Assembly: GCA_003963235.1 (NCBI GenBank)
Contig: RXKF01000009.1
Location: 1 to 62,691, forward strand
From: Rickettsiales bacterium
GTDB lineage: Bacteria > Pseudomonadota > Alphaproteobacteria > Rickettsiales > Rickettsiaceae
Direction of reading: 5' to 3'
Length of the DNA stretch: 62,691 nucleotides
The translations under genes were made by a program, and so were the position numbers. Positions within the stretch are counted from its first letter, which is position 1; each line of letters opens with the position of its first letter. The notes under the pieces were generated by a model. That model made no database searches. It was not told where the DNA came from and was given only the letters and a program-made list of their open reading frames with translations. Below are positions 11,245-58,025 of this stretch, one piece after another.

Positions 11245-11589
11245 TTAGTAATAAGCATCTTTTAGTTCTTTTAAAGTTCTTTTTCTTTTGCTTTCTGCAA
11301 ACTCTTCCTTAAATTTCTCTAAAGGCTCTTTAAATTTATCCCCAGTTTTATTTTTAAGTTGAGAACCTGGAGTTTTAGATGGTTTATAAGGAGGAGGTTT
11401 ATAAGAAAGATTATGTTCTTTTATATAAATATTAAATGCCCGTATATGTATTTTTAACTGACGGGCTATCTCCGATTTAAACTTTCCACTATTCAACAGT
11501 TTCTGTATATCTTCTGGAGTATATTTTTGTAAAATTAATGCACTTTTAGAGTTATTATATTTTTTACTCACAACACCTCTATATCTCAA
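11245..11589 (-). CDS. hypothetical protein, possible HTH
   Basis: KSEIARQLKIH HTH-like segment. Confidence 0.5.
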   Translation of the reverse strand: MRYRGVVSKKYNNSKSALILQKYTPEDIQKLLNSGKFKSEIARQLKIHIRAFNIYIKEHNLSYKPPPYKPSKTPGSQLKNKTGDKFKEPLEKFKEEFAESKRKRTLKELKDAYY

Positions 11590-11813
11590 ATATTTTTATC
11601 GTTTTTACCTTGGGTAAGTTTCCTTGTTACTTTTTGTTGAGAATTTATCCATTCCTCTATCTGTGAAACCCTATGATTTAAAAGTTCAGTTGTTCTTATT
11701 ATCTTTTTTACCAATTCTTGAGTATCTTTATCAAGCTCTAAATTACGTTTAAACATCCATGACATTAAGCATATCATTCCTACCATCAATGATAATAATA
11801 AATTCAGGAACAT
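11586..11813 (-). CDS. small membrane-anchored coiled-coil protein
   Basis: N-terminal hydrophobic helix followed by heptads. Confidence 0.5.
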   Translation of the reverse strand: MFLNLLLSLMVGMICLMSWMFKRNLELDKDTQELVKKIIRTTELLNHRVSQIEEWINSQQKVTRKLTQGKNDKNI

Positions 11814-56394: not shown

Positions 56395-58025
56395 TAGTAT
56401 AATTTCTTGCGTTTAGTAACGATCTCATCTTCCTTAACATCACTTGTATGAATTAAAGTATCAAAGTCTCTAAGGTACAAAATTGTCTGTGTCATCGAGT
56501 CAACCAGGTCTTTTGATTCCCCATTTGGAAAAGTTATCACTGTTTCTAAAAACTCCTCGGCCATAGGAGTTAGTCTTTCAGGGTTTTTCTCCTCGGTGGG
56601 TAAGTATACAAGCCCGCACTCAATAAGAGGTGCTGCTCTCTGTACTCTTGCATTCTTATCGCCTTTTGGGGTGTAGCCTATAGCAGGAACTCCTCCAAGC
56701 CTTAGATCACGTATTAAAGGATCGCCCGTTGCTTTTGCCTCAATAAGGCAAATATCAACAGTTCTTTGAGCCGGCATTGGGTTCTTATGCTTGCCTATAT
56801 CCTTATAATCTTTGGCTAAGCGCTGAGCCCTGCTTCGGAGCTCCGGATAGCCTACACGACCCCGCCAACTAGAGAGTAGCATCATCCTAAATAGCTCATC
56901 CTCGGATTTTTCGCCCCAAACTCCCCACGTAGTACAGGCAGAATATGCAGCTGTTGGTTCATCAGAGATTGCCGTATCCCAGCTTTGCAATATGTAATCA
57001 AATTTAGGCTTAATAGGGCTAGTCCAGAGCTTAAACCATTTTTTCTTGATTATTCCGCCGCCAATTGGAGATGGTCTTTGCTGGCACTGCCCAGCATAAC
57101 CATAAGAGCCGAGTAACTTTTTTAACTCATTTACCTGCTTTTCGCCAAAACGTAAGTCGCTCAGTACCTCTCCTTCTTTGTTTCTGGGGTCTTCCCAAAT
57201 AACCTGATCTATACCAAGAGGAACTGTAATACACTTGCGCTTTTCTTCAAATTCTAGCGGCAGCACTAACTCCACCCAATCACCCTCGCTGTCATTCTTT
57301 CTGATATAACCGGTTAAATCATTCTCGTGCGTTCTTTGCTGGACAACTATTCGGCAGTCATTAGCTGGGTTATTTGAACGGGTAGACATTCTTTGTGTCC
57401 ACCAGTTAATTACGTTCTCACGTTTTATTTCAGATAAATCCCCTGGGTCATTAGGGTCATCAATGATAATAATTGAACCGCCTTTACCGACAGTTTTAGA
57501 TACCACGCTTGTTGATTGCCTATATCCTGTTTTTGTATTCTGGAAAAAGCTCTTAACGTTCTGATCTCTAAGAAGAGGGAATCTATATCCCCAATTATCC
57601 TGATACCAGTTACTTTCGAGTAATGATCTATTCTTCTGTGCATGCTCAAGGCTTAAGGAATTAACGCAGGAAACAGTTAAAAACCGCTCACTAGGGTTAT
57701 GTATCCATACCCACGCAGGAAAAGCTACCGATATTAAATTGGTTTTACCGGTACGAGGAGGAACATTAATAATCAGCTTCTTTATTTGCCGCGCGTAAAC
57801 CGCTTCTAAATGTTCTGCTATAGCTTTAATATGCCAGCTATCAACATAAGGCATGTTACCCTCAATATAAGGCCAGCTCGATTTAAAGAATTCATATAAA
57901 GAGCCCTCGCTACTTGCTACTTGCTCCTGTACTTTAAATAATTCATCCAAATAACTCTGCTCGAATGTAGACATTAAAGCAGGATCAAGCAGAGATGAAT
58001 TTATATGATCGGACTTACGCTTCAT
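56394..58025 (-). CDS. terL: terminase large subunit
   Basis: INVPPRTGKT, IIIDDP, QQRP, SWDTA, IEAKATG, DK.AR, DLVDS. Confidence 0.92.
   Translation of the reverse strand: MKRKSDHINSSLLDPALMSTFEQSYLDELFKVQEQVASSEGSLYEFFKSSWPYIEGNMPYVDSWHIKAIAEHLEAVYARQIKKLIINVPPRTGKTNLISVAFPAWVWIHNPSERFLTVSCVNSLSLEHAQKNRSLLESNWYQDNWGYRFPLLRDQNVKSFFQNTKTGYRQSTSVVSKTVGKGGSIIIIDDPNDPGDLSEIKRENVINWWTQRMSTRSNNPANDCRIVVQQRTHENDLTGYIRKNDSEGDWVELVLPLEFEEKRKCITVPLGIDQVIWEDPRNKEGEVLSDLRFGEKQVNELKKLLGSYGYAGQCQQRPSPIGGGIIKKKWFKLWTSPIKPKFDYILQSWDTAISDEPTAAYSACTTWGVWGEKSEDELFRMMLLSSWRGRVGYPELRSRAQRLAKDYKDIGKHKNPMPAQRTVDICLIEAKATGDPLIRDLRLGGVPAIGYTPKGDKNARVQRAAPLIECGLVYLPTEEKNPERLTPMAEEFLETVITFPNGESKDLVDSMTQTILYLRDFDTLIHTSDVKEDEIVTKRKKLY

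Follow-up and report, generated by a model that had tools for sequence, protein, structure and literature searches.

The window analysed here is a stretch of 62,691 nt that makes up the whole of contig RXKF01000009.1 (C62) of a metagenome-assembled genome of 88 contigs and 87% completeness. Its reverse strand carries the large terminase TerL (56394-58025), an SU10-type portal (54049-56394), a candidate scaffold and a GroES-like gene (52256-53669), tail-fibre, decoration and adaptor-like genes (42184-47747) and a candidate TerS (14874-15458), on the basis of Pfam and PHROGs, together with a patatin-like phospholipase within the tail module (40629-41717; Pfam), an SU10-type adaptor (39260-39928; Pfam), the major capsid protein (48515-49444) and a podophage tail nozzle (37511-39256). 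The last two are identified by fold. The 309-aa capsid product is predicted to adopt the HK97 fold (pLDDT 83; Foldseek E ~1e-12), its profile finding no match among PDB sequences, and the 581-aa nozzle product is most similar in fold to Pa223 (E 8e-21), SU10, VP1 and P22 gp10.

Four large genes on the forward strand (30113-36317), conserved in related elements, are candidate ejection proteins. The last of them is 36% identical to a gene that follows the tail genes of the Megaira phage MAnkyphage, and a look-alike of P22 gp7, at 0.87, offers a weak lead. No sheath or tape-measure family in Pfam or PHROGs matches the contig, although 30113-31612 has short local matches (15-22% coverage) to genes that three records annotate as 'tape measure'. 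An adaptor and a nozzle, with no tube, sheath or tape-measure family match, indicate podophage morphology. An earlier note had read the locus as a full head, short-tail and ejection set with no tape measure or sheath: profiles and folds bear out the head and short-tail part (TerL, portal, capsid, adaptor, nozzle and fibres), the ejection set stands as four conserved genes of putative function, and the lack of a tape measure holds for the families searched, qualified by those short matches. No endolysin was found on the contig with Pfam or PHROGs, and the candidates for lysis are the patatin gene, which has a homologue in all eight relatives compared and in MAnkyphage, and two small hydrophobic ORFs. 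With no endolysin found, the patatin might take part in release across bacterial or protist membranes.

The same contig encodes the replication and partition functions of a plasmid. ParA and a small partner occupy 12276-13120 (reverse strand); ParA itself (12485-13120) matches NCBIfam NF041546 above its cut-off, while the partner is ParG-like by position only. Both proteins share 97-100% amino-acid identity with pPCS109, and the ParA region is 92% identical in nucleotides to G035:C3. Beyond them on the same strand follow a C5 methylase, the candidate TerS and a ParB-N/N6-N4 methylase (13230-16680; Pfam, PHROGs), and then the DnaB helicase (Pfam) with an adjacent HTH initiator (18918-21529). 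This 423-aa initiator-like gene (20258-21529) has HTH/RepA_N-type look-alikes at 0.94, which we treat as a lead. A ProP-like MFS transporter and a SpoT-like HD hydrolase (22517-24437; Pfam, NCBIfam) are common to Megaera plasmids, and a plasmid-type DnaA-like initiator (25124-26173, reverse strand) shares 45% identity with the gene annotated as DnaA in pPCS109 and is present in seven of the eight relatives, missing only from the fragment G162. On the forward strand lie an HTH regulator, a YqaJ exonuclease, an XRE HTH protein and Bet (26359-29922), and RuvC is also among the profile matches of the contig (Pfam, PHROGs and NCBIfam in both cases). Both of the initiators that had been proposed are represented by initiator-like genes, and DnaB, YqaJ and Bet are confirmed by profile searches. 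The DnaA-like initiator likely serves plasmid replication, and DnaB with the HTH initiator likely serves lytic replication. Next to TerL, a porin and an Rpn nuclease are encoded (58181-60361, forward strand; Pfam, NCBIfam); the porin is full length and adjacent to TerL in six of the eight relatives, so that in most relatives it is a backbone gene rather than the cargo it had been proposed to be.

No integrase, resolvase or protelomerase was recognised on the contig (no match to PF00589, PF00239, PF07508 or PF16684); the earlier note, too, had seen no integrase. PF00239, PF07508 and PF16684 are also missing from the entire bin, and PF00589 occurs there twice, both times on contig C32, in genes that we take to be XerC and XerD. 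Among relatives, PF00589 was found in none of G156, G158, G160, G161 and CP113869 (0/5). The protelomerase family expected of an N15-like linear phage-plasmid, PF16684, gave 0/5.

What kind of element this is becomes clearer from its relatives. Three records of circular plasmids from Ca. Megaera polyxenophila contain genes with which TerL shares 92-95% identity. Circularly permuted, the window corresponds to CP113869.1 (NDG2 unnamed2, 64 kb, circular), which covers 41,593 nt of it (66%) at 86.6% identity, and to part of AP017967.1 (pPCS109, 109 kb), which covers 42,046 nt (67%) at 87.3%. Both were deposited as plasmids with mostly hypothetical genes, and both share the gene order of the window, its capsid (97-98%) and TerL (93-95%), and a dif-type site after the Rpn gene. 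Unlike the window, each has one such site, neither has DnaB or the HTH initiator, both contain introns or IS elements and other cargo, and the nozzle of pPCS109 is split by an IS. In IMG/VR, 94 of 97 pattern matches encode relatives of the capsid protein, the 80 kept being 88-99% identical to it. Among six long IMG/VR records, G156, G158, G160 and G161 (55.5-58.9 kb) bear end repeats of 20-127 nt, three of them being classed as end-repeated by IMG/VR, and have the same gene order as the window; DnaB and the HTH initiator are present in G156, G161 and G171. The records G169-G172 run continuously from TerL through the dif-type site, and G170-G172 continue to the methylase/ParA block. A second NDG2 plasmid, CP113870.1, encodes TerL, YqaJ and Bet of this phage family but no capsid, together with a type B polymerase and a primase-helicase, and may be a satellite or relic.

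The claim that the core ORFs are uninterrupted holds, their lengths agreeing with those of homologues in the eight relatives, and together with the profile and fold evidence this gives a complete virion gene set. Since the plasmid relatives lack DnaB and the 423-aa initiator and pPCS109 has a broken nozzle, the window represents the more intact copy. That two Megaera plasmid relatives are decayed in this way nevertheless raises the question of whether the window, too, is a plasmid retaining phage genes that no longer makes infectious particles, a reading to which the lack of an endolysin match and a full molecule that may exceed the genome size of the family would also lend themselves. We hold it to be quite unlikely: every core ORF is full length, TerL, portal, capsid, adaptor and nozzle have dN/dS values of 0.04-0.23 against three relatives, as under purifying selection, and many relatives are found among viral contigs.

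Still less probable, in our estimate, is that the locus is a domesticated module resembling a gene transfer agent (GTA), or a free lytic phage that entered the bin by chance. A TerL homologue does exist as a single chromosomal copy in 108 of 129 other genomes of the family, mostly at ~35% identity, the contig is a tetranucleotide outlier in its bin, and its capsid relatives CRP-901/902 have been described as strictly lytic (PMC10149686, in part). The chromosomal ~35% terminase is probably that of a GTA, and none of 130 other GTDB genomes of family Rickettsiaceae was found to encode the capsid protein of the window; contigs C76 and C56 of the bin carry PF05065 capsid genes of their own; and the element has its own initiators, DnaB and partition genes, with circular relatives inside Megaera assemblies. 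In a Rickettsiales GTA, head genes would sit conserved on chromosomes throughout the family and be unaccompanied by replication genes, which is not the pattern here. The C56 capsid gene contains a stop, and two genomes (G010 and G022) hold closer, phage-type TerL copies at 53-61%. In tetranucleotide composition, contigs C44 (24% GC) and C56 deviate more strongly than C62, and contig C37 has ORFs that look foreign, so the bin may contain further misplaced contigs.

The element is larger than the interval 11245-58025 first assigned to it, because backbone homology to the relatives covers 2114-4215 and 11474-60631; the former includes small backbone genes (2493-4107, reverse strand) with homologues in CP113869, G156, G158 and G159. 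Between these two stretches sits a cluster encoding a LysE exporter, a VioA-like flavin oxidase (a match below cut-off), a HemN-like radical SAM protein, a 2Fe-2S ferredoxin, a second TrpRS and an EamA transporter (4453-11091). The cluster is absent from all eight relatives, whose equivalent slot holds GTPase/TPR genes, dioxygenases or other cargo, in agreement with the proposal that the metabolite cluster is cargo, and its radical SAM gene has no match among viral contigs. The second TrpRS is 29% identical to the TrpRS of the bin and ~52% to gammaproteobacterial TrpRS. By analogy with the chuangxinmycin cluster, in which trpRS is located with the biosynthetic genes (PMC5925218, in part), 4453-11091 may encode a tryptophan-analogue pathway with a self-resistance TrpRS. 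The same arc of G171 (L270:6577-15492) contains a different cluster, with a ThrRS, a WelO5-like enzyme, a methyltransferase, a PLP decarboxylase and a second synthetase-like gene, and up to 26 kb of cargo occupies the TerL-to-ParA arc of that record. Also as cargo in G171, between TerL and dif, is a 3,556-aa SecA-DEAD-like protein (L269:11127 onward). A direct repeat of 78% identity pairs 2265-2425 with 4299-4461 in the window, the first copy coming after dif site 1 and the second having no dif site and bordering the TrpRS cluster.

Outer cargo lies at both ends of the contig. On the left are a NIF/HAD-like phosphatase (99-1310, forward strand; PF03031), absent from the eight relatives, and a 508-bp MITE with 36-bp inverted repeats (1615-2122) that is 96-97% identical to copies on pPCS109 and G035:C2. 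The G035:C2 copy stands ~750 bp from a dif site with spacer TTTATC, and the MITE is inverted in an assembled contig of sequencing run X1 relative to the window. On the right are a Schlafen/AlbA_2-RecG-C protein (60676-62388, reverse strand; Pfam) and the 3' end of a threonine-aldolase-like gene (62599-62691, reverse strand), cut by the contig end, by which the contig enters a homologue of a 10.7-kb cluster of G099 that is chromosomal there amid mobile genes. The G099 cluster (G099:C1:1211889-1222597; L258:3889-14597) includes EamA, an epimerase, a glycosyltransferase-radical SAM fusion, a methyltransferase, a PhyH dioxygenase, an ABC transporter and two aldolase-like genes. The contig flanks gave no useful match to plasmids, and a search with a 33-nt pattern taken from the right end yielded two metagenome contigs that share only 58 nt.

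Two dif-type XerC/D sites, which the argument from a missing integrase to an episome had overlooked, lie near the two ends of the backbone homology. Site 1 (2181-2208, spacer TTTATC) and site 2 (60600-60627, spacer CCTACC) are 28-mers on the forward strand, in direct orientation and 58,419 bp apart, which is within the genome size range of the family; site 2 is identical to the single site of pPCS109, and the XerD arm of both equals the published Rickettsiales dif arm listed for Ehrlichia and Rickettsia (PMC2731167, in part). Three shuffles of the genome yielded no dif-type match within three mismatches. Of 108 family genomes, 75 contain the core dif motif and 26 its reversed control, the chromosomal spacers being mostly TCTATA or TATATA, and the arms of the two sites match the chromosomal dif of G099, G073, G075 and G009. 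Members of the phage family conserve the arms and vary in the spacer. A serine resolvase is present in all five long records G156, G158, G159, G160 and G161, none of which has a dif-type site (a dif-like match in G158/G159 was dropped because it lies inside the porin gene), while the window, CP113869 and AP017967 have the site and no resolvase; six fragments also have a dif-type site and no resolvase in the portions examined. As these records are kin, the exclusion is a pattern and not a statistical test, but the mutual exclusion of site and resolvase in complete relatives suggests that the site likely functions in dimer resolution.

Two direct dif-type sites with host XerC/D and no integrase of the element's own are also what an IMEX would have, so the missing integrase alone is no proof of an episome. 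The phage could have integrated at a chromosomal dif through host XerCD, with the sites as attL and attR and the flanks as variable DNA of the terminus region. The two sites bracket a unit-length element of 58.4 kb with arms of chromosomal type, no other strong dif was located in the bin (C68:133 and C37:3833, tried as its chromosomal dif, scored too low), and the right flank leads into a cluster with a chromosomal location in G099. Against this, neither spacer is the common chromosomal TCTATA or TATATA. The 70 nt outside site 1, on the XerC side, resemble G170/G171 (z 8-9), as in the phage family, and chromosomal dif contexts score z -0.6 to 3.1; for the 70 nt beyond site 2, no resemblance to any tested sequence was seen. 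The flanks, moreover, consist of a plasmid-shared MITE and mobile cargo, the contig ending before any core gene. Mismatches between the two spacers at 3 of 6 positions may make excision harder.

Read assemblies speak to both readings. We compared three sequencing runs with assembled contigs that match the window, X1, X8 and X9, of which X1 is not independent because it is possibly the source run. Depth in X1 is flat at 9-10 across phage and flanks, which would also suit integration; a 9,747-nt contig there spans the cluster 4453-11091, and a 3,053-nt contig extends 2,751 nt past the right end, with 1-13200 unmatched among the matches listed. In both X8 and X9, the Rpn gene and 2240-2413 are linked on a contig of 3,994 nt, the single-site form, whose length and depth are equal in both comparisons. 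Phage contigs have a depth of 25-37 in X8 and ~200-220 in X9, compared with 7 and 18 for the EamA-matching contig (82 kb long in X9), that is, ~4-5x and 12x, where contig depth is a rough guide rather than a measure of copy number, and the genome to which the EamA contig belongs is an assumption. The Schlafen flank is a separate contig of lower depth, ~99% identical (13 in X8, 33 in X9), at ~2x EamA, which speaks against integration. We regard integration at dif as unlikely, though the least so of the alternatives considered. No terminal repeat was found on the contig, nor any tRNA gene that could be considered as an att site; its ends are not directly joined, and more cargo lies beyond it. 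Of the checks proposed earlier, circularity is seen in the relatives and suggested by the X8 and X9 forms and not by the contig's own ends, and coverage above that of the EamA-matching contig is seen in X8 and X9, while X1 is flat.

The host is likely Megaera, a sister genus of that of the bin. The EamA of the contig is 86% identical to those of genus g9 genomes, which appear to be Megaera, 67-70% to those of two genomes from g1, the genus of the bin, and 63% to the copy in the bin itself, and the MITE is 97% identical to a G035 replicon. Nucleotide similarity between the contig and the rest of the bin is confined to diverged EamA and porin paralogues. GTDB divides this group into Megaera and Megaera_A (bioRxiv 10.64898/2026.03.27.714854, in part), and the contig would either be mis-binned or belong to an element that crosses sister genera. 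A strict dif pattern was found in 0 of 27 same-genus genomes and a looser one in 7 of 22, so dif was not used as host evidence.

Taken together, these data lead us to propose, with a probability of roughly 0.7, that the window carries an intact podophage, colinear with circular Megaera plasmids, that persists as a circular phage-plasmid and uses host XerCD for its dimers. The episomal temperate phage of the earlier note is supported by the circular relatives and by the joined forms of higher depth in X8 and X9, and is qualified by the two direct sites and the unjoined ends. In lysogeny, the DnaA-like initiator and ParA/ParG would maintain the plasmid; in lytic growth, the HTH initiator, DnaB and Bet/Exo would replicate the DNA, and a genome of 55-60 kb would be packaged. 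Dimers would likely be resolved by host XerCD at the dif-type site, around which the TerL-to-ParA arc would serve as a variable cargo slot. The window copy likely gained a block comprising the Schlafen gene, the second cluster, the NIF gene, the MITE and the second dif site, either as extra cargo or by fusion with another plasmid, and recombination between sites 1 and 2 would release a unit-length circle. Such a two-site copy may be comparable to the Xer co-integrates of Acinetobacter plasmids, which also bear host Xer sites on an episome and whose replicon fusion and resolution offer a model for two direct sites (PMC5790767, in part); the sites of the window, in contrast, are predicted, lie on a phage and have unequal spacers.

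Few phages are known for Rickettsiales (PMC9254644, in part). A podo-like phage in Rickettsiaceae is not unprecedented, because MAnkyphage_25.80 (OP381185.1), compared here by its deposited record, is already available. Like the window, it has a Megaira host, a circular record, tail-tube genes, an initiator, Exo/Bet and a patatin, with no annotated integrase. It matches 10 of 69 window ORFs, with Exo at 77%, and has no capsid, portal, TerL or nozzle match at E 1e-3; it is 38 kb long against ~58 kb, has resolvase, lysozyme and ankyrin genes, and has no annotated ParA. On sequence comparison, it is a different family. At its position 16186 there is a dif-like site with an exact XerD arm, the chromosomal-type spacer TCTATA and a degenerate XerC arm, and MAnkyphage might integrate at dif. 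The nearest cultured relatives by capsid (32-36%) are CRP-901/902 of Roseobacter and HTVC023P/027P of Pelagibacter, with TerL identities of 40-41% and 29-30%, respectively. CRP-902 has a portal at 28%, a similar nozzle and, as in the window, GroES before the capsid block. Unlike the window, the CRP phages encode a primase-polymerase according to the excerpt of PMC10149686 that reports their strictly lytic life, and the CRP and HTVC phages have no nucleotide similarity to it in the part compared. The circular 57.5-kb pBealeia1 of Holosporales (NZ_CP133271.1) matches 15 of 69 window ORFs in the 49.5 kb compared, including capsid, portal, TerL, adaptor, ParA and Rpn, mostly at 23-59% identity, and also has GroES before the capsid block; its replication genes differ and no dif-type site was seen in the part compared. 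It is likely a distant phage-plasmid.

No description of the window's phage family was found in the literature searched, and George et al. 2023 may mention relatives. The excerpts of PMC10847448, PMC13134042 and PMC10132079 refer to plasmids or metabolite clusters of Megaera and make no mention of this phage, and CP113869, AP017967 and Megaera are absent from the supplements of PMC13221032 and PMC12977533 among the rows listed; the former, a phage-plasmid survey, lists the G160 record as a phage-plasmid-like element with no host (in part). The element is a real and intact family-level variant, whose virions are predicted from its genes.

The window marks a common freshwater phage family of Megaera, with relatives at 94 IMG/VR loci. 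As this family is already present in cultured Megaera strains, filed as plasmids, induction and electron microscopy can be tried now. We also advance, tentatively and with less than even odds, the idea that widespread freshwater podophage-plasmids of Megaera move small-molecule clusters, some with a self-resistance TrpRS or ThrRS, through a slot at the Xer site, switching between host Xer and a resolvase of their own for dimer resolution. If true, defensive symbiosis genes would have an infectious vector in Rickettsiaceae, one that passes among the intracellular symbionts of protists. If virions are made, genes, biosynthetic cargo among them, could pass by this route from one protist-dwelling bacterium to another, and there would be a handle on the genetics of Megaera.
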